DNA of 64,000 nt from Myxococcales bacterium (GTDB lineage Bacteria > Myxococcota_A > Polyangia > Polyangiales > DASUME01): NCBI GenBank assembly GCA_044507075.1, contig JBIQKA010000014.1, positions 4,388-68,387 of the forward strand. The letters run 5' to 3'. The position numbers and the translations under genes were made by a program. A model generated the notes under the pieces. It did no database searches. It worked only from the letters and a program-made list of their open reading frames with translations, and was not told the DNA's origin. Below, one piece after another: positions 11,279 through 62,553 of this stretch (positions are counted from its first letter, which is position 1; the number at the start of each line of letters is the position of its first letter).

Positions 11279-12579
11279 CGACCCCGGTGACCTTCGAGCG
11301 AGCGGGCGAGGCGCACGCCCGTGACCTGAAAGCGCGTTCGAGCAGGCCAGAAGTTGCGATAGCTCGCGCGCATGTGCGCCCTGGGCGTGAAGCAGGATCC
11401 GCCGCGCAGCACCAGCTGATTGACCATGAACTTGCCGTTGTACTCGCCCAGTGCCCCGGCGCTCGGCGTGTACCCGGGATAGGGCGCGTAGCTCGAGGAG
11501 GTCCACTCCCAGGCGTCGCCGAACAACTGCTGCGGGTGTGTGGCGCAGGTCTCGGCCGAAGGGAGCGGTCGCAGCGCACCGCTCTCGAGGAAGTTGCCCC
11601 GTACGGGCAGCTCACGCGCCGCGAGCTCCCACTCGGCTTCGGTGGGCAGACGCGCGCCGAGGTAGCGCGCGAGGGCGTCGGCTTCGTAGTAGCTCAGGTG
11701 CGCGATCGGCTCATCATCCTGGGCTTCACGCAGCCCGTCCAAGCCGAACACGCGCAGGGCACCTCCTCGATCACGATCGGCGTAGAGCGGCCCCGTGATC
11801 CCCTCGGCGCGCACCCAGCCAAAGCCCTCGGAGAGCCAGAGCGAAGGCTTCGCGTACCCCCCTTCGGCCTCGAACGCCTTCCACTCGCCCACCGTGACCA
11901 GGCGCTCCGAGAGCTCGAAGGGGTCGACCCACACGCGATGTCGCGGCTCTTCGTTATCGAAGCGAAAGCCCGCGCCCGCCTCCGCGCCGAGCTCGACCAG
12001 CCCGCCTTCGTAAGCGTGGAAACGGTTGGGCGCCGCGGGCTGAGTCGCCTCGGGTGCTGGGGTCCCGCGATATGCCGGATAAAACGGGTGCGCGGAGAAC
12101 GCGTGCAGGATGTCCGTCAAGATCAGCTCTTGATGTTGCTCCTCGTGGGCGAGCCCGAGCTCGACCAGGGGCGAAACCTCCAAGGCCTCCTCCGCGGAGA
12201 GGCCCGTGAGCCACTCCGTCATGCGCCCGTCGATCACTTGCCGATAGCGGGTCACTTCGTCGGCGGACGGACGCGACAAAAGCCCGCGCCTGGGCCGTGG
12301 GTGACGCGGACCGAGGCTCTCATAATAGCTGTTGAACAGGAATCGATAGTCCTCATCGAACACGCGATGGCCTCGCGGCGAAAGCACGAAGGTTTCGAAG
12401 AACCAGGTCGTGTGCGCGCGGTGCCATTTGGTGGGGCTACAGTCGGGCATCGATTGCAGCCCCTGATCTTCGCTCGACAGTGGGGCACAAATGCGCTCGG
12501 TCGCGCCGCGCACACCACGGTAACGCTCGAGAAGCTCGATTGTTCGCCGAGAGGAAGTCACCGAGCTCAATTTACGCAA
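11275..12579 (-). CDS. egtB: hercynine oxygenase / sulfoxide synthase EgtB (DinB_2 + FGE-sulfatase domains)
   Basis: SPTKWHRAHTTWFFETF and LAHEEQHQELILTDI form the DinB-like iron site. The C-terminal RLPTEAEWE...VLRGGSCFT is FGE-sulfatase-like. Confidence 0.9.
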   Translation of the reverse strand: MRKLSSVTSSRRTIELLERYRGVRGATERICAPLSSEDQGLQSMPDCSPTKWHRAHTTWFFETFVLSPRGHRVFDEDYRFLFNSYYESLGPRHPRPRRGLLSRPSADEVTRYRQVIDGRMTEWLTGLSAEEALEVSPLVELGLAHEEQHQELILTDILHAFSAHPFYPAYRGTPAPEATQPAAPNRFHAYEGGLVELGAEAGAGFRFDNEEPRHRVWVDPFELSERLVTVGEWKAFEAEGGYAKPSLWLSEGFGWVRAEGITGPLYADRDRGGALRVFGLDGLREAQDDEPIAHLSYYEADALARYLGARLPTEAEWELAARELPVRGNFLESGALRPLPSAETCATHPQQLFGDAWEWTSSSYAPYPGYTPSAGALGEYNGKFMVNQLVLRGGSCFTPRAHMRASYRNFWPARTRFQVTGVRLARSLEGHRGR

Positions 12580-49821: not shown

Positions 49822-50550
49822 ATGAGCGCACCTCGACATGGATGGGTAGCCCTCGGCGTTCTCGCGATCGCCGCCTGCGGGAACGACACGCAGACGGGGG
49901 GCACGGGCACGCTGAAGGTCACGAGCTACGGCGAGGCCTTCATCGAAGAGGGGATCCCCGCCTCGGAGATGGCGGATGGCTGGTCCGTCGCGTTCAGCAA
50001 GTTCGAGGTCCGCATCACGGACGTGAGCGTGAACGGGCTCACGCTCGCGAATCCGCCGGCGGTCGACCTGGTGCAGCCCTCCGCGGGTCAAGGGCAGGAG
50101 CTCGGCAGCCTGGAGGTTCCGTCGGGAAGCTACAGCGACGCGCGCTTCGTCGTCCGCTCGGTTCACGTGGTGGGCAACGCCCAAAAGCACGACACGAAGA
50201 AGGACTTCGATTGGACCTTTTCGGCGCCCATCTCCTACCAGGCTTGCGAGACGACCAACGAGGTCCCCAGGAACGGGGTCGGCGTCTTTGAGATCACGAT
50301 TCACGCCGATCACTTGTTCTACGATAGTTTGGTCAGCGAGGACCCCGCGCTCGGCTTCGATGCGCTCGCCGCGGCCGACACGAACGGCGACGGGGTGGTC
50401 CATCAGGAGGAGCTCACCGCAGCAGACGTCGGCGGGTTCGATACCGGCAACGAGGACATCGCAAACCTCTGGGAGTGGCTGAGCGCGCTGGTGGCCACCC
50501 TCGGCCACGTGGACGGCGAAGGACACTGCCACGCCGAAGCCGCGATGTGA
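49822..50550 (+). CDS. lipoprotein LP2, unknown family, EF-hand-like loop and His/Cys C-terminus
   Basis: Lipobox GVLAIAACGN. Contains DTNGDGVVHQEEL and the C-terminal LGHVDGEGHCHAEAAM. The stop overlaps the receptor start. Confidence 0.65.
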   Translation: MSAPRHGWVALGVLAIAACGNDTQTGGTGTLKVTSYGEAFIEEGIPASEMADGWSVAFSKFEVRITDVSVNGLTLANPPAVDLVQPSAGQGQELGSLEVPSGSYSDARFVVRSVHVVGNAQKHDTKKDFDWTFSAPISYQACETTNEVPRNGVGVFEITIHADHLFYDSLVSEDPALGFDALAAADTNGDGVVHQEELTAADVGGFDTGNEDIANLWEWLSALVATLGHVDGEGHCHAEAAM

Positions 50551-52691
50551 GCGCATCCCGGCACGCGTCCTCGCGCGCGGGTAGGCGCCGCGCGCGCTTT
50601 CTCCCGGCGCTGCTCGGGCTCACGTTGCTCTCTGGGCGAGCCAGGGCGCACGAAGGGGATCCGCCCGCGGCTCCGGCGCGGGCGGAGGAGCGCCCCACGC
50701 CGCCGGCGAGCTTCGAGACCACGCGGCCCACCGCCTACGAAGCGCATGCCGTCGTCACCCGCCAGCGCGCAAAGCCCGCCTCGAGCGCGCACGTGCACCA
50801 GGCCGACGTGGCCTCCGTGCCCATCCGAACCGCGGAGGACGCGCTACGCCTGGTGCCGGGGTTGGTCCTCGTCCAGCACGGCAGCGAAGGCAAGGGGCAA
50901 CAGTACTTCTTGCGTGGCTTCGACGCGGTGCACGGGGCGGACATCGAGCTCACGGTGGAGGACATCCCGATCAACGAGTGGTCGAACATCCACGCCCAGG
51001 GTTACTTGGACGTGGGGTTCGTGATCCCCGAGCTCATCCAAACGCTCGAGGTCGTGAAGGGCCCCTTTTCGCTCGAGCAAGGCGCCTTCGCGATGGCCGG
51101 CAGCGCGCGCTACTGGCTCGGCATCTCCCCCGCCGAGCGCGGCGCGCGGGCCAGCTACACGGTGGGCACCACGGGGCGGCAACGCGTCTTGTTGACCTAC
51201 GCTCCGAAGGACGGTGACGGCAGCGAGTTCGTGGCGGCCGAGGTCGTGAACGACCCATCGTTCGGCCAAAACCGTGAGGCGCGCCGCGCGAACGTGATGG
51301 GGCGGGTGAACCTGATGAACTCCGAGAAGCGGGGCCGTCTTTCGCTCCTGCTCTCCGGTTACGCCGCCAACTTCGGGCTGCCCGGCACGCTGCGCATCGC
51401 CGACGTCGCGCGCGGACGCATGGACTTTTACGACGCCTACTTCCTCGACGGCACCGGCTCCTCGCTGCGCACGCTCGGCGCGCTCCACTACCACCGCGAG
51501 GACGCCCGGACCCGGATCAAAGGGGTGCTCTACGGAGGACTGCGCAGGCTCTCCCTGTTCGACAACTTCACCGGCGACCTCGTCGATCCCGTGCACGGGG
51601 ACTACCGTGATCAGCGCCAGCGCGCCCAGAGCTTCGGAACCCACCTGTTCGTGGACCACGCGCTTGGGCCCGAACTCGGCCTGCTCGCGGGCGCGGGCCT
51701 CACGGGCGACAGGCTGGATCAAAAGGAGCTACGCACCGACGAAGAGGGTGAGCTCGTGGCGCTGCGGCGCGGCCTCGAGGGCGTGCAGCTGCTCGCCTTC
51801 GCGCAGCTTGGGCTGCGTTACCAGCCGACCCGCCTGGTCACCCTGGAAGCAGGCGCGCGCGGCGACCTGGCTCACGCCAATGTGCGCGACGTGCTGCACA
51901 CCCAACGACGCCAGCAGGGAACCGAGGTCGCCTGGTCACCGCGCGCGATGGCCACCGTGCGCGCGCACCCGTTCGTGAAGTTGATGGCCTCCTATGGTCG
52001 CGGCATGCGTCCTCCGGAGGCACGCGCGCTCACCCGCTTCCGGCCGGCCATGCTCGGGATCTCCGAAGAGGACGCCGGCACGGCGCGCTCGCGTTTCACG
52101 CAGTCCCACACCATGGAGCTCGGCGCCAGGGTGCGCGCCGATGCGCGCCTCTCCGGGAGCGCTGCGGGCTTCGCCACGCTGATCGAGCGGGAGTCTCTGT
52201 TCGATCACGTCTCGGGCACGAACTTGGAGCTCAATGGCACCCGCCGCGTGGGCGCCGAGGCGTTGGTCACGGGCCAACCCTGGCCCTTCTTGACCCTCAG
52301 CGGCGATATCACCGGCGTCGACGCACGCTTTCGCGCCTCGGGGAACCGCGTTCCGTTCGCCCCTTGGCTCACGGGCGGCCTTCGTGCCGTGCTGACGCAT
52401 CCATCCGGCACCCGCGCAGGCCTGCGCTTCGTCGCGGTGGCCCCGCGGCCCCTCCCCCACGGCGCACGTGGAGAGCCGCTCTTTTTGCTCGACGCCACGG
52501 CCGGCTACCGCTTTCGCTGGCTCGACGTGTGCCTCGCCCTCGAGAATCTGCTCTTTCGCCAGCTACGCGAGGGCGAGTACCACTTCGCGAGTCACTGGTT
52601 TAGGGACGAGCCGCGGAGCGCCATCCCCACCACGCAGGTCATCGCAGGCCCCCCTTTCAACGCGCGCCTCACGCTCTCGGTGTTTCTGTAG
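50547..52691 (+). CDS. TonB-dependent outer-membrane receptor
   Basis: The GTG overlaps the LP2 stop. Signal ...LLSGRARA. Plug domain IRTAEDALRLVPGLVLVQHGSEGKGQQYFLRGFD...EVVKGPFS. Long beta-barrel region. The last residue is Leu, not Phe. Confidence 0.85.
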   Translation: MSASRHASSRAGRRRARFLPALLGLTLLSGRARAHEGDPPAAPARAEERPTPPASFETTRPTAYEAHAVVTRQRAKPASSAHVHQADVASVPIRTAEDALRLVPGLVLVQHGSEGKGQQYFLRGFDAVHGADIELTVEDIPINEWSNIHAQGYLDVGFVIPELIQTLEVVKGPFSLEQGAFAMAGSARYWLGISPAERGARASYTVGTTGRQRVLLTYAPKDGDGSEFVAAEVVNDPSFGQNREARRANVMGRVNLMNSEKRGRLSLLLSGYAANFGLPGTLRIADVARGRMDFYDAYFLDGTGSSLRTLGALHYHREDARTRIKGVLYGGLRRLSLFDNFTGDLVDPVHGDYRDQRQRAQSFGTHLFVDHALGPELGLLAGAGLTGDRLDQKELRTDEEGELVALRRGLEGVQLLAFAQLGLRYQPTRLVTLEAGARGDLAHANVRDVLHTQRRQQGTEVAWSPRAMATVRAHPFVKLMASYGRGMRPPEARALTRFRPAMLGISEEDAGTARSRFTQSHTMELGARVRADARLSGSAAGFATLIERESLFDHVSGTNLELNGTRRVGAEALVTGQPWPFLTLSGDITGVDARFRASGNRVPFAPWLTGGLRAVLTHPSGTRAGLRFVAVAPRPLPHGARGEPLFLLDATAGYRFRWLDVCLALENLLFRQLREGEYHFASHWFRDEPRSAIPTTQVIAGPPFNARLTLSVFL

Positions 52692-53511
52692 CCGGTGGCG
52701 CAGCGCTCGGCGTCGGGCGCACCACGCGGCTAGACACCGCGAACACGACGAACAACACCATCACCACCGCGAGACCGAACCCGAGCTCTCGGCCTTCCGT
52801 CCAGCCCTCCGCAGCCGGCCACAGGTACCTGGCGGCCCCCAACATCGCCACCAACAAAGACAGCGCGCCGACCGCCCCGCTCATCCAGCGCGAGGCGATG
52901 CGCGCCCGCTCGTCGGCCCGCTTGAGAAGGCTCGCGATCCAGAGCCCGTTTACCGAGTCGATCAGCACCATCCCGAGCGCGAAAGCGAGCGCGAGACCGA
53001 GCGCCCCGCCGCCGCCGCCCACGCGGCTGGCGCTCAGCGCGAACAGGGAGGCCAGGCTCATCGTGTCGAAGGAGAGCGCAAAAAGCGCCCCAAGGAGCGC
53101 GGGGGCGCCCGGGTGGCAGCTATGGGTCACGCGCTGGAACCAACCGGCACGGAGCCCCACCATGGGCACGCCCTCGCCGCGCGGGGTTTCCCAGACCGCA
53201 CGCAGATTCAAGATGCCGAGCGCCGAAAGCGCAGCCATCGAGATCGCCACACCCAGATCTTCGAACCAGCTCGGCACGAGAAAGGAGCTCGAGAGCGCCC
53301 CGGCCAGGATGGCGACCAGGCTCACCACCGCACCGTGACCGGCCGAGAACAGGAGCCCGCACCAGCGCGCGCTGCTTGGACGATGTCCGATCGTGCGAAC
53401 ACGGGTCAACCCATCGATGGCGACGAGGTGATCGGCGTCGAGTCCGTGTTTGACTCCCATCACGAACGCGAGCGCAAGCAACGCAAGCCAGTCGTTCATT
53501 CCGTTGGTCAT
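52669..53511 (-). CDS. NiCoT family high-affinity nickel/cobalt permease (HoxN/NixA/UreH type)
   Basis: TM2 signature KHGLDADHLVAIDG (HxxxxDH). Also LFSAGHG, LSFDTMS and GMVLIDSVNG blocks. The 3' end overlaps the receptor 3' end by 23 nt. Confidence 0.85.
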   Translation of the reverse strand: MTNGMNDWLALLALAFVMGVKHGLDADHLVAIDGLTRVRTIGHRPSSARWCGLLFSAGHGAVVSLVAILAGALSSSFLVPSWFEDLGVAISMAALSALGILNLRAVWETPRGEGVPMVGLRAGWFQRVTHSCHPGAPALLGALFALSFDTMSLASLFALSASRVGGGGGALGLALAFALGMVLIDSVNGLWIASLLKRADERARIASRWMSGAVGALSLLVAMLGAARYLWPAAEGWTEGRELGFGLAVVMVLFVVFAVSSRVVRPTPSAAPPATETPRA

Positions 53512-53590
53512 GCATCCCTCGATGAACTCCGGGCCCTGGGCGCGAGGACGCTCCCCGCCGCGCGCCTCTTCGCTCGACTCTCCCTCCGTC

Positions 53591-53617
53591 GTCTTACGGT
53601 TTCCACGTTCATCTTAC
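53591..53617. promoter_or_regulatory. direct repeat of the nikR-operator half-site upstream of the NiCoT gene
   Basis: GTCTTAC-N13-ATCTTAC. It has the same 7-mer and the same 13-nt spacing as the nikR site, but in direct orientation. It lies 80-106 nt upstream of the permease start. Confidence 0.4.
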
Positions 53618-53962
53618 CGGTCGCGCCTTTCGTGCGGCCCGCGCGTGCGTCATGTTCCCTCCTCTTTGCATCACCAGCGCGCGCGTAAATCCGCATCGAT
53701 CGCGGAAAGCCCGTAGACCATCCACCCCACAGGTCGGACGGTCAGAATGCATTTGCGACACCTACCGCTCCCGAAGCGTGCGCTCGTTCTCCTCCGCGCG
53801 CCCGAACACGAAGCGCGACGCACGTCTCTTCTTTTCGCTCTTTGCTGATGCCTGCGCTCAGACGCCGTAGTACGGTCTGTGGGTCGCCGCGCTCATGGAA
53901 GCGCGCAGCGACGAGAGCCCTCGCCTGAGCGCGCCCACGGGCGCGAGCACAGGAGGTTGTCC

Positions 53963-54880
53963 ATGGCAGAGCGCGTCGCCGCGAGCGAAGGCACCGTCGT
54001 CGACTTCATCCGCTCCACGCTGCGTGGCGTTGGGCAGATCGTCTTTCAAGGCCATGCGGGCACCGGCCTCTTCTTTCTCGTGGGCATCGGCTTCACGTCG
54101 CGCATCCTCTTGCTCGGCGCCGTGCTCGGAGCGCTCGTCTCCACGCTCACGGCGCGTCTACTCCGTTACGATGCGCAGGAGATCACCCAGGGGTTGTTCG
54201 GCTTCAACGCCACGCTCGCGGGCATCGCGCTCCCGTTCTATTTGGATCCCGGCTCGTGGATCACCTGGGCGCTCGTCGTCGTGGGCGCTGTGCTCGCCAC
54301 CGTGCTCACCCGCCTGCTCCGCCAGCACCTGTCCTGGCCCAGCTACACGGCGGGCTTCGTCATCTCCACCTGGCTCCTGCTCCTCTTGATCCACGGAATC
54401 GAGGGAACGGCCATCGATCACAAGCCGGAACCTTCGGGTTCGCTCCACGCGCCCAACAGCTTCGTGTCCGCCTTCCTGGCCGGAGAAGCCGAGATCATGT
54501 TCGGCTCGAGCACATTCACGGGGATCATGTTCCTGCTGGGGATCGCCCTCAGCAACCGCAAACACGCCCTGCTCACGCTGCTCGGCACCGTGGTGGGGAC
54601 GGGCCTCGCCTACTACCACAACGACCCCGCAAACACGATCCGCCTCGGAATCTATGGCTACAACGCCGCGCTGGCCGCGGTGGGCATCGTCCTATGGCGC
54701 GAGTCGCTCCTACTCTCGATCTTGGCCGCGGTGGTCTCGGTGCCGATGACCGAGTTCTTCCCCAAGGTGCTCGGCATTCCTCCGCTCACTGCCCCATTCG
54801 TGGCCGCCTGTTGGTTCGTGATCGCCGTCGGCGGCCTGGACCGCTACTTCAGCCACGTCGCCGGAGCGCACCATGCCTAG
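53963..54880 (+). CDS. urea transporter (UT/Yut family)
   Basis: ATG is preceded by AGGAGG. LRGVGQIVFQ...GLFFLVGI, GLFGFNATLAGIAL, GIYGYNAALAAVG and PPLTAPFV blocks are typical of UT channels. Confidence 0.85.
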   Translation: MAERVAASEGTVVDFIRSTLRGVGQIVFQGHAGTGLFFLVGIGFTSRILLLGAVLGALVSTLTARLLRYDAQEITQGLFGFNATLAGIALPFYLDPGSWITWALVVVGAVLATVLTRLLRQHLSWPSYTAGFVISTWLLLLLIHGIEGTAIDHKPEPSGSLHAPNSFVSAFLAGEAEIMFGSSTFTGIMFLLGIALSNRKHALLTLLGTVVGTGLAYYHNDPANTIRLGIYGYNAALAAVGIVLWRESLLLSILAAVVSVPMTEFFPKVLGIPPLTAPFVAACWFVIAVGGLDRYFSHVAGAHHA

Positions 54881-55050
54881 AGCGCATTTCACAAGTCCCC
54901 GCACCGCCTCGCGGGCGGCGCGGCGTCTGATCCGCCGACCTCGGACACTGCGACAATACCCCAGCATTGCCTCGGTCCGAGGTCGACGGATCCGACGCCG
55001 CGGCGCTCCACGATCCGGCGCGGGGATCTATGAAATGCGCTCTAGGGCAT
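54873..55050. repeat. ~178-nt imperfect palindrome filling the urea transporter-ureA spacer
   Basis: The outer arms CCTAGAGCGCATTTCA (54876-54891) and TGAAATGCGCTCTAGG (55031-55046) are perfectly complementary, and 4 more bp pair with a 1-nt bulge. Inner complementary segments: TCCCCGC/GCGGGGA, CGCGGCGTC/GACGCCGCG, GATCCG.CGACCTCGGAC/GTCCGAGGTCG.CGGATC. Confidence 0.85.
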
Positions 55051-55075: not shown

Positions 55076-55378
55076 ATGCACCTGACGCCACGTGAGATCG
55101 AGAAGATAATGGTGTACTCGCTGGCCGAGATCGCGCTCAAGCGCAGGGCCAAGGGGATCAAGCTGAATCACCCGGAGGCGATGGCCGTGATCTGCGCGGC
55201 CGCCATGGATGGCGCGCGCGAGGGTCGCACCGTGGAAGAGGTGATGGCCTCGTCCGCTCAGGTCTTGAAGCTGAGCGACGTGATGGAGGGCGTGGCCGAC
55301 ATGATCCCCTTCGTGCAACTCGAGGCCGTGTTCACGGATGGCAGCCGCCTGATCACCGTCCACCAACCGATCCGCTGA
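55076..55378 (+). CDS. ureA: urease subunit gamma
   Basis: [35 protein letters not shown]...FPDGSRL-type full-length match (100 aa). Confidence 0.95.
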
Positions 55379-55408: not shown

Positions 55409-55822
55409 ATGACCAAGAAGGATGGCGAGGCACGGGTGCCGGTCGGGGGCCTGCTGCTGCGAGAAGAGGAGATCGAGCTCAACGCGGGGCGCGAGGTCGT
55501 CACCCTCAAGGCCCGCAACACCGGTGATCGTCCGATCCAGGTCGGGTCCCACTATCACTTCTTCGAGGTCAACCGTTTCCTCGAGTTCGACCGCGCGCGC
55601 GCGTTCGGGATGCGCATGGACATCCCCGCCACCACGGCGGTGCGGTTCGAACCCGGCGATGAAAAGACCATCAACCTCGTGCCCTACGGCGGCAAGCGCT
55701 ACGCGTACGGCTTCAACAACCTCGTGGACGGTTGGGTGGGTGGTTCGCCCACGACCTACCGCCCCAACTTCACGGAGGCGATGAAGCGCGCCGAGGAGCG
55801 CGGCTTCAAGTCCAAGAAGTAG
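55409..55822 (+). CDS. ureB: urease subunit beta
   Basis: [46 protein letters not shown]...LVPYGG. Confidence 0.95.
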
Positions 55823-55904
55823 TTCCGTCCAGGATGACTGGTTGTTCAGCTCGCGGGCGCAGCTGCCCGCCCCGAACGTTCGCCAGCACGGAGGCGAGGT
55901 TTCC

Positions 55905-57623
55905 ATGTCCAAGATCTCACGCAGGCAATACGCAGACCTCTACGGCCCCACCACGGGAGACAAGATCCGCCTCGGCAACACGGACCTCTACGTCGAGATC
56001 GAGCGCGACCTTCGCGTCTACGGTGACGAGGCCGTGTACGGCGGCGGCAAGACCATGCGCGACGGGGGAGGCATCGAAAACCGCCTGACCTCGGCAGCGG
56101 GCGCGCCGGACCTACTGATCACCAACGTCACGATCATCGACCCCTACCTCGGCGTCATCAAGGCCGACGTCGGCATGAAGGATGGAAAGATCGCAGGGGT
56201 CGGCAAGGCGGGGAACCCCAACACCATGGAGGGCGTGACGCCGGGCCTGGCAGTGGGGCCCGCGACCGACGCGATCTCCGGGGAACACATGATCCTCACG
56301 CCGGCAGGCATGGACGCGCACGTGCACTACATCTCACCCCAGCAGGTGTACGCCGCGCTCTCGAATGGCATCACCACGCTGTGGGGAGGCGGCGTTGGCC
56401 CCACCGACGGCACCAATGGCACCACCATCACCTCGGGCCCACAAAACCTCGCCTGGATGCTCCAGGCCGCGGAGGGCCTGCCGATCAACTTCGGCTTCTT
56501 GGGCAAAGGCAACTCGAGCGGCAAGGGCCCCTTGGTGGAGCAGCTCATCGGGGGCGCCGCCGGCTTCAAAGTTCACGAGGACTGGGGCACCACACCGAGC
56601 GCAATTCGCAGCGCGCTCTCCGTCGCAGACGAATACGACGTCCAGGTGTGCATCCATACCGATACGCTGAACGAGGCCGGCTACGTGGAGGACACCGTCG
56701 CCGCCATGGACGGGAGAACCATCCACACTTACCACTCGGAGGGCGCGGGCGGCGGCCACGCGCCGGACATCCTGCGCGTGTGCGCGGAGCCCAACGTCCT
56801 GCCGAGTTCGACCAATCCGACGCTGCCCTTCGGGGTCAATTCGATGGCCGAGCTCTTCGACATGATCATGGTCTGTCACAACCTGAACCCGAAGGTCCGC
56901 TCCGACGTGGAGTTTGCCGAGAGCCGCGTACGCGCGGAGACCATCGCCGCCGAGAGCGTTTTGCACGACATGGGCCTCATCTCCATCATCTCGAGCGACT
57001 CCCAGGCCATGGGTCGGGTCGGCGAGACGTTCATGCGCGCCATTCAGACGGCTGACACCATGAAGAAGGCACGAGGGAAGCTGCCCGAAGACGCTCCCGA
57101 CAACGACAACTTTCGGGTCCTGCGCTTTCTTTCGAAGGTCACCATCAACCCCGCCATCGCGCAGGGCATCGGGCACGTGTTGGGATCCATCACGCCCGGC
57201 AAGCTCGCCGACCTCGTGCTCTGGGAGCCCGCGTTTTTTGGCGCCAAACCCAAGATGGTGATCAAGGGTGGTCTGATCAATTGGGCGAGCACGGGCGACC
57301 CGAACGCGTCCCTGCCGACCCCGCAGCCCGTGATGTATCGCCCCATGTTCGGAGGCTTCGGCTTAGCCATGCCCTCCACCTGCGTGAGCTTCGTGTCGCG
57401 GGCCGCCTACGACAACGGCATCAAGGAGAAGCTCGGCTTGCAGCGCAAGGTGATCCCAGTGCTTGGCACGCGCACGCTCGGCAAGCAGAACATGGTGCGC
57501 AACACGACCCTCGCGAAGATCGAGGTCGATTCGCAGACCTTCGCGGTGAAGGTCGACGGCGTGCACGCCACGGTGCCGCCCGCGAAGTCGCTCTCGTTGG
57601 GCCAACTCTATTTCTTTAGCTGA
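55905..57623 (+). CDS. ureC: urease subunit alpha
   Basis: Start [28 protein letters not shown] with GGAGG upstream. Contains [37 protein letters not shown] and MVCHNL. Confidence 0.95.
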
Positions 57624-57702
57624 TCCCATTCAGCTCATCTGTGCGCTTCCCTCGCGGGAGGACGCGGCCGATGTCATCTCGCTGTAGCTCGCTGTCTCGC
57701 TC

Positions 57703-57721
57703 GCGGGTCGAACCGACCCGC
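57703..57721 (+). other. GC-rich hairpin in the ureC-porin spacer
   Basis: GCGGGTCG-aac-CGACCCGC (8-bp stem), with no T-tract. Confidence 0.25.
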
Positions 57722-57777
57722 TCCGACCGCAGTACTGGGCGTAGGTCATCGACCCCCTCACTCCCTCGGCACGCGAG

Positions 57778-59526
57778 GTGGAAGGCTCCATGTTCACCCT
57801 GGAACTGGCTGACGATCGCCAATCAACGCACACGACCTCGCATACGCCATCTGGCCACGGAGCGTGGCGCTCACGGCTGCGGCTCGCCTCGGCGATGCTG
57901 TGGATCGCCGGCTCGTCCGTCGCGCACGCCCAGGAACTTCCTCCACCACCTCCCACGCTCGAGGTGGTCCCCGTCGTTCCCGCGCCGGCCCCTGAAACTC
58001 CTCCCGGGCCGCCTGCCCCCTCCACGGCCGAGTTGGAGGCCGAGATCGCGCGGTTACGTCAGCAGAGCGACGCATCCCGAGCGGAGCTGCACCGGCTCGA
58101 ACAGGAGCTCGGCGCACTGCGTGCGCGCCAGGAGGTCCATGAGACCTCCACCGCGCGCGCGCAAAAGCCGCCCCCCGGCACCGTGAGCGGCGTGCCCACC
58201 CGCTACCATTCCGGCGCCTTTGGCCCAAGCACGCCCGTCGCGCCCGACGCCGACCACCAACCCATCGTCCAGGCGCGCTACGGGTACAATGGCGATGCGA
58301 CGGGGCCGCTCGGCGGCGGCGGCCATTTCAAGGCCGCTACTGCGGACGACGAATTCAGCGTCGCAGTGACCGCCCAGATCACCGTGGACGGCACGTTCTT
58401 CAACCACAACAAGATGCCCACGGACGAGCAGGGCTTCAACATCCCGTTCGCCCGCCTCTATCTGTACGGAAACGTCACCAAGATGGTGAGCTATCAGGTG
58501 GGCGTGCAGGGCTTCTTGGGCACGTTCAACCTGCTCGACGCGTTCTTCAGCTGGCACCTCTACAAGAACCTGACCCTGCGCTTCGGCAAGGGCCTCACAC
58601 CGCCGCTCTACGAGTACTTCTCGTTCAACCCGGCGCTCGAACCGGTGATCACGAACTCGCCACTCTTTCAGTTGGCTGCCAAGCGCCCGATCGGCGTCAT
58701 GCTCACAGGCACGCTGGCCAAGGAGCGCCTCGGGTTCTGGGCGGGGGTGAGCAACAGCGGAACGAGCCTGTTCGGCAACCTCGACAACAACGTCGACTTC
58801 AACACCCACGTCGAATTCAACCCCTTCCGGGGAGAGCGCTGGAAGAACGGCTTTCTGGAGGGCCTCGGCCTGGGCGCCGGCTTCTCGGTCGGCAAGCAAC
58901 GCTACGCGCTCGATCAAACGAGCATCGCCTTCACCAACAATGGCGAGGCCACCACCAACCCGAGCTTCGTCACCGTGGTGGGCATCCCCTGGTACGTCTA
59001 CAACGATGACGTGCGGACCGATGGTCAGCGCTTCCGCCTGGCGCCGCACCTTTACTACTTCGGCCGGGTGAGCCTGCTCGGCGAGTACATGTTTCATCGC
59101 CGCGACCTCACGAACGGCACCCGCGGCGGCATGTCGACGCAGCACGCGTATTACGTCAACGGTTCGGTCTGGCTCACCGGCGAGCGCGACTTCAAGGGCA
59201 CCGCCTTTCAGGCCTATGCCACCGTGGACCCCAGACGCCCCCTCGCGCGTGGAAGCCGGGGTCCAGGAGCGTTTCAGCTCGCGGGACAATGGTCCCAGTT
59301 CTTTGCCGGGGACCGCGACATCGAGCGCGGCTTGGTGGATGACACGCGCTCGACGACGCGCATGGACAACGTGATGGCGGGCCTCAACTGGTGGCCCAAT
59401 AAGCACGTCCGCATTACCGTGAACTACGTAAAGACCTGGTTCGACGAGGCGATCCCGATCCGCAGCCGTGGACCGAATCTGTCCTCGTATCAGACGGCGT
59501 GGTTCCGCTTTGCCCTGTTCCTCTGA
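57778..59526 (+). CDS. OprO/OprP-like (Porin_O_P family) outer-membrane porin with N-terminal coiled coil
   Basis: Signal ...AMLWIAGSSVAHA. Coiled coil AELEAEIARLRQQSDASRAELHRLEQELGALRARQ. Barrel blocks FNIPFARLYLYGNV, LLDAFFSWHLYKNLTLRFGKGLTPPLYEYF, RPIGVMLTG, GFWAGVSNSG. The start is uncertain. Confidence 0.7.
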   Translation: MEGSMFTLELADDRQSTHTTSHTPSGHGAWRSRLRLASAMLWIAGSSVAHAQELPPPPPTLEVVPVVPAPAPETPPGPPAPSTAELEAEIARLRQQSDASRAELHRLEQELGALRARQEVHETSTARAQKPPPGTVSGVPTRYHSGAFGPSTPVAPDADHQPIVQARYGYNGDATGPLGGGGHFKAATADDEFSVAVTAQITVDGTFFNHNKMPTDEQGFNIPFARLYLYGNVTKMVSYQVGVQGFLGTFNLLDAFFSWHLYKNLTLRFGKGLTPPLYEYFSFNPALEPVITNSPLFQLAAKRPIGVMLTGTLAKERLGFWAGVSNSGTSLFGNLDNNVDFNTHVEFNPFRGERWKNGFLEGLGLGAGFSVGKQRYALDQTSIAFTNNGEATTNPSFVTVVGIPWYVYNDDVRTDGQRFRLAPHLYYFGRVSLLGEYMFHRRDLTNGTRGGMSTQHAYYVNGSVWLTGERDFKGTAFQAYATVDPRRPLARGSRGPGAFQLAGQWSQFFAGDRDIERGLVDDTRSTTRMDNVMAGLNWWPNKHVRITVNYVKTWFDEAIPIRSRGPNLSSYQTAWFRFALFL

Positions 59527-59580
59527 GGGAGGACCGCGGCGAGCATCGGCTGTGCGCCCTCGAACACAAGGAAGAATGAG

Positions 59581-60213
59581 ATGAAGAAGATCACGCGCAT
59601 CGGAGTGGGCGGCCCCGTGGGCTCCGGCAAGACGGCTGTCATCGAGGCGATCACGCCGCTCTTGCTCGACCTCGGCGTCCGCGTCCTGATCGTGACCAAC
59701 GACGTGGTCACCACCGAGGACGCCAAGCACGTTCGGCGCACGTTGAAGGGGGTGTTGGTGGAGGAGCGCATCCTCGGCGTGGAGACGGGAGCGTGCCCGC
59801 ACACTGCGGTGCGCGAGGATCCGAGCATGAACCTGGCGGCCGTGGAGGACATGGAGAGGCGTTTTCCGGACAGCGACCTCGTACTCATCGAGAGCGGCGG
59901 CGACAACCTCACCCTCACCTTCAGCCCCGCGCTCGTCGACTACTTCATCTATGTGATCGACGTGGCCGCGGGCGACAAGATCCCACGCAAGAACGGCCCG
60001 GGCATCTCACAGTCCGACATCCTCGTGATCAACAAGACCGACCTCGCTCCCTACGTGGGCGCGAGCCTCGACGTCATGCGTGACGACTCCAAGATGATGC
60101 GAGGCACCAAGCCCTTCGTATTCACGAATTGCAAGGCCGGCGAAGGGATCTCCGAGCTGGTCGCGCTGATCCGTCAAGAGGTGCTGTTCGACCTCAAGCT
60201 CAAGTCCGCCTGA
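59581..60213 (+). CDS. ureG: urease accessory GTPase UreG
   Basis: P-loop [22 protein letters not shown] (CPH nickel site), ESGGDNL and NKTDLAP. Confidence 0.95.
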
Positions 60214-60227
60214 AGAAGCGCTCCGTC

Positions 60228-61136
60228 ATGCAAGCGACCGCCCCGGAACTGCTCCCCTACCTTGCGGAGCCGCCGCAGCTACCGAGCGGCGCGCCTGGGA
60301 AGAACGGGTATCTGAAGCTCGGCTTCGAGCGACAGGGCGAGCGCACCATCTTGCGCGAACTGGAGCGCCGCGTTCCGCTCCTGGTGCAGCAGGCGCTCTA
60401 CTGGGACGAGGAGTTTTTGGGCCTTCCCTGCGTGGCGATCATCTCGAACGCGGGCGGCATCGTGCAGGGCGATCGCTACACCATCGAGATCGAGCTGGGG
60501 GCTGAGGCGCAAGCCCATGTCACCACCCAGGCGGCCACCAAGATCCACGTGATGGATCACAACTATGCCGCGCAGACGCAGCACGTCCGGCTCGGCGAGG
60601 GTGCCTACCTCGAGTACCTGCCCGATCCGATGATCCCCCATCGCCATACGCGCTTTCTCATGCACACCACGCTGACCATGGCGCCCAACGCCACCCTGTT
60701 CTACGCGGAGATCCTGTCGGCGGGCCGCAAGCACCACGGGGAGGGCGAGCTCTACCAGTTCGATCTCTTCTCGTCGCTGGTGCGCGCGGAGCGGGAGGAC
60801 GGGCGAGAGCTCTTCGTCGAAAAATTCGTGGTCGAGCCGGGCCAGAGCCCGGTGCGTCAGCTGGGCGTGGTCGGGCCGTACGACGTGTTCGCCAATGCGC
60901 TGTTGCTCACACCGAGAGCATACGCCGACGCTATCTTCGAGGAGCTGGGCGCGGGCTTCGACGCGCGCGCAGAGCTCGCGAGCGGCGCAAGTCGCCTCCC
61001 CAACGACGCCGGGCTCGTGTTCAAGGTGCTGGGTATGGAGACCGAGCCCGTGCGCGCGAGGCTGCGCGAATTTTGGTCCCTCGTCCGCACCCACGTCACC
61101 GGCAAGGGCTTGATGAAGGAGCCCCCATGGCGCTGA
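60228..61136 (+). CDS. ureD: urease accessory protein UreD (UreH)
   Basis: Start MQATAPE at 60228. G.L.L.FER.G.RT, SNAGGIVQGDRY.IEI and TTQAATKI blocks typical of UreD. Confidence 0.8.
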   Translation: MQATAPELLPYLAEPPQLPSGAPGKNGYLKLGFERQGERTILRELERRVPLLVQQALYWDEEFLGLPCVAIISNAGGIVQGDRYTIEIELGAEAQAHVTTQAATKIHVMDHNYAAQTQHVRLGEGAYLEYLPDPMIPHRHTRFLMHTTLTMAPNATLFYAEILSAGRKHHGEGELYQFDLFSSLVRAEREDGRELFVEKFVVEPGQSPVRQLGVVGPYDVFANALLLTPRAYADAIFEELGAGFDARAELASGASRLPNDAGLVFKVLGMETEPVRARLREFWSLVRTHVTGKGLMKEPPWR

Positions 61137-61179: not shown

Positions 61180-61839
61180 ATGATTCTGATCGAAGCGATA
61201 CTCGGCAACCTGCGCTGCGAGGAATGGAAAGAGAAGCTCGAGGGCGCCACGCTGGACGAGCTGAGCCTCGACCAGTGGCAGGCACAAAAGACGCGCCTGC
61301 GCACGACCACGCGCGACGGTCACGAGATCGCGCTCTCGCTCGACCGCAGGAGCCACCTGCACGATGGCGACATCCTGCACTGGAGTCCCAAGGACAGGCG
61401 CGCGATCGTCGTGCGTATCCAGCTCCAGGATGTGATGGTCGTCCACCTCGACCAGGTCGACAAAGCGCCCGCGAGCACGCTCGCTCAAACCTGCGTGGAG
61501 CTCGGGCACGCCCTGGGCAACCAGCACTGGCCCGCCGTGGTCAAAGACAGCAAGATCTACGTGCCGCTCACGGTCGATCGCAAGGTCATGGCGTCGGTGA
61601 TGAAGACCCATGCCTTCGAGGGCATCCACTATGAGTTCGTGGACGGCGCCGAGGTGATCCCCTTCCTCGCACCGCACGAGGCGCGCCGGCTGTTCGGCGG
61701 CGCCGACTCCACACCGCACAGCCACGTTCATGGCGATCCCATGCACGCGCACGAGGGGATGAGCGAGCCCCATGCCCATCCGGGCGGCCACGAACCGCAC
61801 ACCCACGCGGCTTCTTCGCCTGCCCAGGCGGGACGCTAG
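61180..61839 (+). CDS. ureE: urease accessory metallochaperone UreE with His-rich tail
   Basis: LGHALGNQHWPAV (GNRH-type motif). C-terminal HSHVHGDPMHAHEGMSEPHAHPGGHEPHTH. Confidence 0.85.
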   Translation: MILIEAILGNLRCEEWKEKLEGATLDELSLDQWQAQKTRLRTTTRDGHEIALSLDRRSHLHDGDILHWSPKDRRAIVVRIQLQDVMVVHLDQVDKAPASTLAQTCVELGHALGNQHWPAVVKDSKIYVPLTVDRKVMASVMKTHAFEGIHYEFVDGAEVIPFLAPHEARRLFGGADSTPHSHVHGDPMHAHEGMSEPHAHPGGHEPHTHAASSPAQAGR

Positions 61840-62553
61840 ATGAAGACGCGCGCAGCGCCGGGTGTCGCGAGCATCCTCGAGTTGATGCGGGTCTTGCAGT
61901 TCGGCGACTCCGTGGTGCCCGTGGGCTCGTTCTCGTTCTCCAACGGCCTCGAATCGGCGGTGCAGCAGGGGATCGTCCACGATCTGGTCACGCTCGAGAC
62001 CCTCGTAGAAACCGCCCTCGCGCAGGCGGCGCTGAGCGATGGCATCGCGCTCCTGCACGCGCACCGCGCGGCCTTGCGGGGGGAGCTGTCCGCGATCATC
62101 CAGGCCGACTTCGCCGTGCACAATCGCAAGCTCAATGAGGAGATGCGGCTGATGACGGTGCGCATGGGACGCAAGCTCGCCGAGCTCGCCGCCCACGTGT
62201 TCGAAGCGCCGATGGTCGCCGGGTGGCTACACGCCATCCGGGCGGGCGAGACGCCCGGCAGCTACCCGATCGCGCAAGCCCTCGTGTTCGCGGACGCCGA
62301 GCTCAGCGAGCACGACGCGTTCGCGGTGCATCAATATGGCCTCGCCTCGATGATGCTGGGCGCAGCGCTGCGGCTGATGCGCCTGAGCCACCTCGACGCC
62401 CAGCGCATCTTGTTCGCGGTCAACGGCGCGGCCGGCGAACATTACGCGCGGATCGCAGGTGCAAGCCTCGAGGACATGGCCAGCTTCGCCCCCATGCTCG
62501 ACATCCTGGCCAGCGTGCACGTGAAGTCCCACGTGCGGATGTTCATGAACTAG
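61840..62553 (+). CDS. ureF: urease accessory protein UreF
   Basis: The ATG immediately follows the ureE stop. LQFGDSVVPVGSFSFSNGLESAV... is the typical UreF N-terminal block. Confidence 0.85.
   Translation: MKTRAAPGVASILELMRVLQFGDSVVPVGSFSFSNGLESAVQQGIVHDLVTLETLVETALAQAALSDGIALLHAHRAALRGELSAIIQADFAVHNRKLNEEMRLMTVRMGRKLAELAAHVFEAPMVAGWLHAIRAGETPGSYPIAQALVFADAELSEHDAFAVHQYGLASMMLGAALRLMRLSHLDAQRILFAVNGAAGEHYARIAGASLEDMASFAPMLDILASVHVKSHVRMFMN

Follow-up and report, generated by a model that had tools for sequence, protein, structure and literature searches.

A 64,000-nucleotide stretch of DNA from a Myxococcales bacterium (contig JBIQKA010000014.1; hereafter the window) carries a urease operon with an outer-membrane porin gene embedded between ureC and ureG. 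Judged from its genomic context, this porin (gene at 57778-59526, + strand) is probably an outer-membrane urea channel that feeds the inner-membrane urea channel UT and the urease encoded alongside it. Urea ranks among the major nitrogen currencies of soils and waters; how it gets through the outer membrane is mostly passed over or put down to general porins.

Linkage to urease and to a urea channel

The operon forms one co-directional string on the + strand in the order UT, ureABC, porin, ureGDEF, as assigned with Pfam and NCBIfam, with the porin gene 154 nt from ureC and 54 nt from ureG. This placement had been described in an earlier note made from the letters of the window, and it holds. 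Related loci were retrieved by a family-alignment scan, a query with the single protein having returned none; the scan yielded 39 loci from GTDB species genomes, whose flanks were searched with the nine proteins of the window. A soil metagenome contig of 9.9 kb (L047) encodes the closest homologue (P0003; 75% identity); its gene order, ureC-porin-ureG-ureD-ureE-ureF, is the same as in the window, and the nucleotide identity is 83% across 7 kb. All remaining homologues, down to about 35% identity, are planctomycete, from Singulisphaera, Paludisphaera, Tundrisphaera, Aquisphaera and Tautonia, and include metagenome-assembled genomes (MAGs) labelled Kuenenia, Planctomycetaceae and Pirellulales. 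Among the 39 loci, 26 have one or more ure or UT genes in the flank and 21 have four or more; eight of the 13 loci with no such gene in the flank are on contigs shorter than 8 kb.

The linkage takes three forms. In Isosphaeraceae the porin is divergent from UT-ureABCEFGD, and in most of these loci it stands immediately beside UT. The Kuenenia, Planctomycetaceae and Pirellulales genomes have ureCBA-UT divergent from ureEFGD-porin, while the window and the metagenome contig share UT-ureABC-porin-ureGDEF. The pairing with UT also occurs as a UT and porin pair in locus L020 and as two UTs with two porins in L022. Six loci (L022, L024, L026, L035, L038 and L042) have the porin near a urease of another type, with a UreC about 47-55% identical to that of the window; no Pfam-recognisable transporter was found in the approximately 3 kb that separate ureA from the porin in L026 and L035. 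A linkage that persists across three gene orders and two types of urease is best explained as functional coupling rather than chance insertion.

A survey of 121 Isosphaeraceae genomes, with a family profile that splits orthologues (E <1e-140) from paralogues (E about 1e-50 to 1e-70), gave a consistent picture. The porin is present in 33 of the genomes, 30 of which also have ureC; of its 37 copies, 27 are no more than 4 kb away from ureC, the distance being taken to the ureC N-terminal domain. Seen from the enzyme, a neighbouring porin accompanies 27 of 82 ureC copies. Porin and ureC co-occur in these genomes with an odds ratio of 15.9, a descriptive value only, as related genomes are not independent. 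Planctomycetota are the native home of the subfamily, and in their genomes it is tied to urease. The subfamily is small: among 1.84 billion representatives, about 20 clusters at 50% identity score E 1e-80 or better, 198 reach at least E 1e-30 and 4120 at least E 0.001.

Two further Isosphaeraceae loci were recorded in passing. Singulisphaera sp. PoT (L011) has a porin copy with no urease linkage, followed by a small open reading frame (ORF; 11705-12295) whose match to Pro_CA_2, a putative carbonic anhydrase, is borderline, scoring 30.4 bits where the cut-off is 30; the surroundings of this copy held no hint of its substrate. Singulisphaera acidiphila (L054, C1:1606000-1625000) has a second urease cluster with two tandem UT genes, ureC, ureF and ureG, downstream of which lies a different outer-membrane barrel, BBP2/OmpL-like and 453 aa long, and 5 kb past that barrel a paralogous Porin_O_P protein of 611 aa. 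Outer-membrane barrels near urease clusters seem to recur in Isosphaeraceae.

An OprP-like barrel with altered selectivity residues

The earlier note had assigned the porin to the OprO/OprP type, and profile and structural searches bear this out. The Pfam family Porin_O_P (PF07396) matches residues 196-552 over profile positions 2-343 of 370, with E 7.9e-14 and 52.1 bits against a cut-off of 20.9; no NCBIfam model matched the porin. A profile search of PDB sequences returned OprO and OprP only (E 1.4e-9). An AlphaFold2 (AF2) model built on a 29-sequence alignment has a mean predicted local distance difference test score (pLDDT) of 67.8, with the barrel at about 80 and the linkers disordered. 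Foldseek against the PDB placed OprP (2o4v, E 7.3e-17, template modelling (TM) score 0.69 on the target) and OprO at ranks 1-3, with E about 1e-16 and TM scores of 0.65-0.69 on the target, above general porins. The model is predicted to have about 16 barrel strands in aa 194-581, counted from its DSSP string and not from coordinates, a number that answers the earlier suggestion of a strand count by structure prediction. Modelling thus assigns the porin an OprP-like fold. As in the Pseudomonas aeruginosa porins OprP and OprO (2o4v, 4rjw), the barrel is homologous, has about 16 strands and carries long inward loops. It differs from them in an additional 110-aa N-terminal region made up of a Pro-rich linker and a coiled coil, and in its genomic context, which is urease and UT rather than the Pho regulon.

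The anion selectivity of OprP depends on residues that, where they can be aligned, are mostly replaced here. We take the arginine ladder of OprP to comprise R34, R59, R60, R133, R218, R220, R226 and R242, a list that reportedly goes back to Moraes and colleagues in 2007, and its periplasmic lysine cluster to comprise K13, K15, K25, K30, K74 and others. HMMER aligns just the first and last strands of the porin with OprP, and the residue mapping is read from the first of these segments. In this segment, the only alignable part of the pore, five of the six anion-selecting Arg/Lys residues of OprP are replaced. In the ladder, R34 corresponds to a nearly invariant Q200 and R59 to A225, while R60 is kept as an invariant R226; in the lysine cluster, K25 is replaced by Asp, K30 by Ala (Asn in the family consensus) and K74 by Ser. 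At the alignable positions, then, the arginine ladder and the lysine cluster of OprP/OprO are mostly lost. The description of the porin in the earlier note as being of an anion-selective type accordingly stands for the fold, but not for the selectivity residues where these can be aligned.

Conservation within the family is concentrated in the loops. The most conserved part of the porin is the loop at aa 272-304 (TPPLYEYFSFNPALEPVITNSPLFQLAAKRP), with a column identity of 0.85-0.92, the strands having 0.66-0.81; next in conservation come loops 466-497 and 385-395. Conservation of loop 272-304 above that of the strands is typical of a substrate-specific constriction, and this loop is presumed to be the constriction loop. 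Aromatic, prolyl and amide side chains abound in the conserved loops, Arg and Lys are scarce there, and the net charge of the barrel is near zero across the family. Conserved loops and a neutral barrel would fit a channel with specificity for a small solute that is polar but uncharged.

Domain organisation and start codon

From the N-terminus, the protein comprises a long N-region with the signal peptide, a Pro-rich linker, a helix, a Gly/Pro-rich linker and the barrel from about residue 160. The N-region and signal peptide (aa 1-51; 57778-57930, + strand) contain the h-region ASAMLWIAGSSVAHA and a predicted cleavage site between AHA and Q52, a residue that is nearly invariant at the signal-peptide ends of the homologues in the family alignment. 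The helix (aa 83-123; 58024-58146, + strand), which is coiled-coil-like and lies between the Pro-rich and Gly-rich linkers, is a single long helix in the AF2 model at a pLDDT of about 65-77, and its region is conserved across the family alignment. The signal peptide and, as a helix of the model, the N-terminal coiled coil that the earlier note had read from the sequence are both recovered. The beta-barrel domain (aa about 160-582; 58255-59523, + strand), assigned from the DSSP analysis of the model, ends in RFALFL, where most homologues have RFAMFF; the last residue here is Leu rather than Phe. Together, the h-region, the AHA-Q52 junction and the C-terminal beta-signal region mark the porin as a secreted outer-membrane protein in both the sequence and the family alignment. 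The motifs FARLYLYGNV and LRFGKGLTPPLYEYF, which had been pointed out before, are found in it.

The GTG start at 57778 gives 582 aa. An in-frame ATG at 57790, downstream of a Shine-Dalgarno-like GGAAGG motif, gives 578 aa, the form in which the porin is recorded in the protein database (P0002), and this ATG is kept in the closest relative. On these three grounds, ATG 57790 is the likelier start codon. A 582-aa ORF on the minus strand (58054-59802) was rejected as a high-GC shadow frame.

Origin of the gene

Searches of the nine other genomes of the genus and of 200 genomes from the order returned no orthologue of the porin. A maximum-likelihood tree built on the barrel domain joins the window porin, P0003 and a second copy from the same host on contig C201 in a clade with 100% support, which is nested within an Isosphaeraceae clade with 99% support. 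Genomes of the same genus match both flanks, around an SPFH gene near 44 kb and in the last 0.5 kb, at 74-77% at the nucleotide level; the urease and porin segment matches in them only their other urease, a paralogue, at 67-68%. Among named relatives, the best for the flanking SPFH protein comes from a 'Polyangiales bacterium' MAG, and the contig has GC content and tetranucleotide usage typical of its genome. Contamination of the MAG as the source of the gene was ruled out by this typical composition and by the same-genus flank matches. Since the porin nests in an Isosphaeraceae clade while the flanks match the host's own genus, the data point to horizontal acquisition by the host.

The C201 paralogue (C201:36608-38218; L048 8501-10225) has 58% identity to the window's copy and is its sister in the tree. 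Its full ORF has no Pfam match by hmmscan, yet scores 40 bits in the genome-wide family search; no urea genes and no hint of a substrate were found in its surroundings. The simplest history would be a transfer from an Isosphaeraceae-like planctomycete, then a duplication, and then a rearrangement that placed the porin inside the operon, with the accessory genes now in the order G-D-E-F. In the UreC tree, the window enzyme belongs to the same UT-associated urease type as the planctomycete clusters, a placement that does not resolve the donor and is drawn from sampling biased by the choice of loci.

Proposed role in urea uptake

We propose that the porin would act as a trimeric outer-membrane channel of the OprP fold, re-purposed for urea and perhaps also for further amides that are small and uncharged. 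The porin would let urea through the outer membrane, and the UT channel, whose gene lies four genes upstream, through the inner one; the cytoplasmic urease encoded around the porin would then hydrolyse it. In the periplasm, the N-terminal coiled coil probably makes a stalk of three helices, which would stabilise or anchor the trimer. The earlier note had left the cargo open between urea, a nickel complex and the bicarbonate or carbamate products; of these, urea is clearly favoured, because UT is a constant companion of the porin, the linkage outlasts the change of urease type, and nickel has a separate route.

Several observations weigh against this proposal. Urea, at 60 Da, should pass general porins, so that a dedicated pore is not obviously needed. 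Of the 37 Isosphaeraceae porin copies, 10 are not beside urease, and neither is the host's own C201 paralogue, which is surrounded by genes for an esterase, a histidine kinase and a GGDEF response regulator. The confidence of the porin model is moderate, as its mean pLDDT indicates, and the central barrel, which in OprP holds the phosphate site (D94, K121, S124, S125 and R133), gave no detectable similarity to OprP.

A role in the exit of NH4+/NH3 or HCO3-/carbamate, or in the entry of guanidine, biuret or short amides, is unlikely, although it is the alternative that we would consider first. It draws on a fold that is that of anion porins, on the unlinked L011 copy preceding a weak putative carbonic anhydrase match at the Pfam cut-off, and on FmdC, a porin discussed below, which reportedly serves amides besides urea. 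Release of NH3 or CO2 needs no specific pore, however, and the anion-selecting residues are lost at the alignable positions. The tight pairing of the porin with a urea-specific inner-membrane channel also speaks for urea itself.

Urease requires nickel, and outer-membrane nickel importers are known beside ureases, as in the case of Helicobacter pylori FrpB4. A pore admitting Ni2+ or a small nickel chelate for urease loading would also suit the Kuenenia-type layout, in which the porin follows the nickel-insertion genes ureEFGD. In the window, however, a TonB-dependent receptor (50475-52691, + strand; Plug and TonB_dep_Rec_b-barrel) and a NicO/NiCoT nickel permease (52669-53511, - strand; NicO PF03824, E 4e-12) are already close by, and would together provide nickel with its own outer- and inner-membrane route, separate from the porin. 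With UT rather than a nickel gene as the immediate neighbour of the Isosphaeraceae porin, and no His- or Cys-rich motif among the invariant porin residues, we regard nickel entry as improbable.

Equally improbable is a mainly structural role, as an outer-membrane tether or general diffusion pore of the OmpM/SLH-porin kind with no substrate tie to urease. Paralogues with no urease linkage align to the family profile from position 16-20 on, N-terminal region included, so the stalk is probably not urease-specific, and this shared stalk speaks for such a role; the Foldseek matches also include the attachment porin OmpM1. It would leave the urease-tracking of this orthologue group unexplained, and Pfam detects no SLH or other peptidoglycan-binding domain in the porin. 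OmpM1 of Veillonella parvula (8byt) resembles the window porin in combining an N-terminal coiled-coil stalk with a 16-strand trimeric porin barrel, the stalk and trimer being predicted here. The two differ at the tip of the stalk, which in OmpM1 carries an SLH peptidoglycan-binding domain, whereas the window porin has a Pro-rich stretch before the helix.

More specific still is the idea that the stalk, with its Pro-rich tip, crosses the periplasm and docks the trimeric porin on UT, forming a trans-envelope urea conduit to urease. Solved bacterial UT is a trimer, and such a conduit, if real, would channel scarce urea straight to urease. We give it very little weight, as the unlinked paralogues appear to share the stalk region and a generic role in trimerisation or anchoring is more likely.

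An ordinary phosphate-selective OprO/OprP porin that landed in the operon by chance is scarcely credible despite the Pfam family name and the annotation 'phosphate-selective porin OprO/OprP' on many homologues, given that urease synteny kept across three layouts and several orders largely refutes chance placement, that no pst or pho genes were found among the neighbours examined (UT, ureABC, ureGDEF, NicO and the TonB-dependent receptor), that R34, R59, K25, K30 and K74 of OprP are replaced, and that the identity to OprP is only 16%. That annotation is probably wrong on members of this subfamily.

Relation to known urea-linked porins

The earlier note knew of no such porin as a member of a urease operon, a view that has to be revised in the light of FmdC and of a porin of Nitrospira inopinata, as porins beside urea-use genes are already known. 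FmdC of Methylophilus methylotrophus is described as a porin inducible by urea and amides, encoded in fmdCABDEF and proposed to admit urea at low concentration (Mills 1997, as related in passages of PMC5877670 and PMC10781810). Like FmdC, which belongs to the SAP family (TCDB 1.B.16), the window porin is an outer-membrane protein encoded with urea or amide catabolic and uptake genes, and so shows the linkage to uptake and hydrolysis genes that marks SAP-type porins; the likeness is one of gene context and described role, not of sequence comparison. Across four model libraries, no FmdC or SAP model matched the window porin, and Porin_O_P was the only family that Pfam returned. The partners differ, being formamidase and an ABC-type uptake system for FmdC but UT and urease here, and we know of no report of an N-terminal coiled coil in FmdC.

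Comammox Nitrospira genomes carry fmdC-like porins (bioRxiv 10.1101/138586; PMC7078480). In Nitrospira inopinata, the putative SAP porin NITINOP_3364 adjoins the ure/ut operon and is transcribed like ut, a pattern interpreted as urea uptake regulated at both membranes (bioRxiv 10.1101/2023.08.04.551995). Compared by gene context only, the window porin is likewise next to urease and urea-transporter genes, and both proteins are biochemically uncharacterised; they differ in phylum and in position, NITINOP_3364 being adjacent to its operon and the window porin inside. No paper on a planctomycete urease-linked Porin_O_P porin was found in the literature searched. What is new here appears to be a stalked, uncharacterised Porin_O_P subfamily that seemingly does the job proposed for the FmdC/SAP porins. 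The window porin is unusual in being embedded within a urease operon after transfer between phyla.

The subfamily, small as it is, tracks urease and UT through rearrangements, a change of urease type and inter-phylum transfer. Such tracking argues for selection on the passage of urea across the outer membrane, in planctomycetes at least, among them MAGs that bear the label Kuenenia (anammox). The subfamily is a good candidate for the first biochemical and structural description of a urea-selective outer-membrane channel and, if the proposed role is correct, would exemplify the conversion of an anion-porin scaffold to a neutral solute.

Spacers and neighbouring genes

The porin is likely co-transcribed with ureABC and ureGDEF, as it sits inside the operon, and no terminator-like site was found in either the ureC-porin or the porin-ureG spacer. 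The ureC-porin spacer (57624-57777, + strand) is conserved at near coding level: identity to L047 is 84% at 57599-57696, covering approximately its first 100 nt, whereas the porin-ureG spacer is just 52% identical. With the start of the former as conserved as coding sequence, an internal promoter or RNA element ahead of the porin is possible.

The 8-bp GC hairpin that the earlier note had reported in this spacer (57703-57721) is present as GCGGGTCG-AAC-CGACCCGC, with a folding free energy (dG) of -15.4 kcal/mol and a z-score of -1.79; the spacer as a whole folds with a z-score of -0.86. The part in differential expression suggested for it finds no support. The hairpin has no U-tract, is equalled by 12 of 200 shuffles and does not form in the homologous spacer of L047, and an attenuator or terminator function was ruled out on these grounds.

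The UT/Yut-family inner-membrane urea channel, the first gene of the string, lies at 53879-54880 (+ strand; Pfam UT PF03253, E 1.8e-60) and matches the model TIGR03441 (urea_trans_yut) with E 1.5e-51, under that model's cut-off. It is followed on the same strand by ureA (55076-55378; Urease_gamma), ureB (55409-55822; Urease_beta) and ureC (55842-57623; Urease_alpha and Amidohydro_1, and NF009834 urease alpha at 1072 bits); the real start of ureC is probably about 20 codons inside this ORF. Downstream of the porin, Pfam and NCBIfam assign ureG (59581-60213), the ureD ORF (60129-61136), ureE (61180-61839) and ureF (61840-62553), all on the + strand. The pair of TonB-dependent receptor and NicO permease lies directly upstream of the UT gene. 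Overlapping NicO, an ORF at 52468-53688 (+ strand) has no Pfam match and is probably a shadow frame.

The genome has a second urease (ureA, ureB, ureC and ureG) on another contig (C157:43500-47700; locus L049), with proteins 56-61% identical to those of the window. No porin or UT was detected beside it with tblastn. This urease is of the genus-typical kind, common to other genomes of the genus.

The spacer between UT and ureA contains a nested palindrome of roughly 170 bp (54876-55046) that occurs in multiple copies. Over 25 of them, 87-96% identical, are scattered across many contigs of the same genome, and each copy matches its own reverse complement at about 77%. These features suggest a mobile palindrome similar to a miniature inverted-repeat transposable element (MITE) or repetitive extragenic palindrome (REP), rather than a urease-specific regulatory structure.

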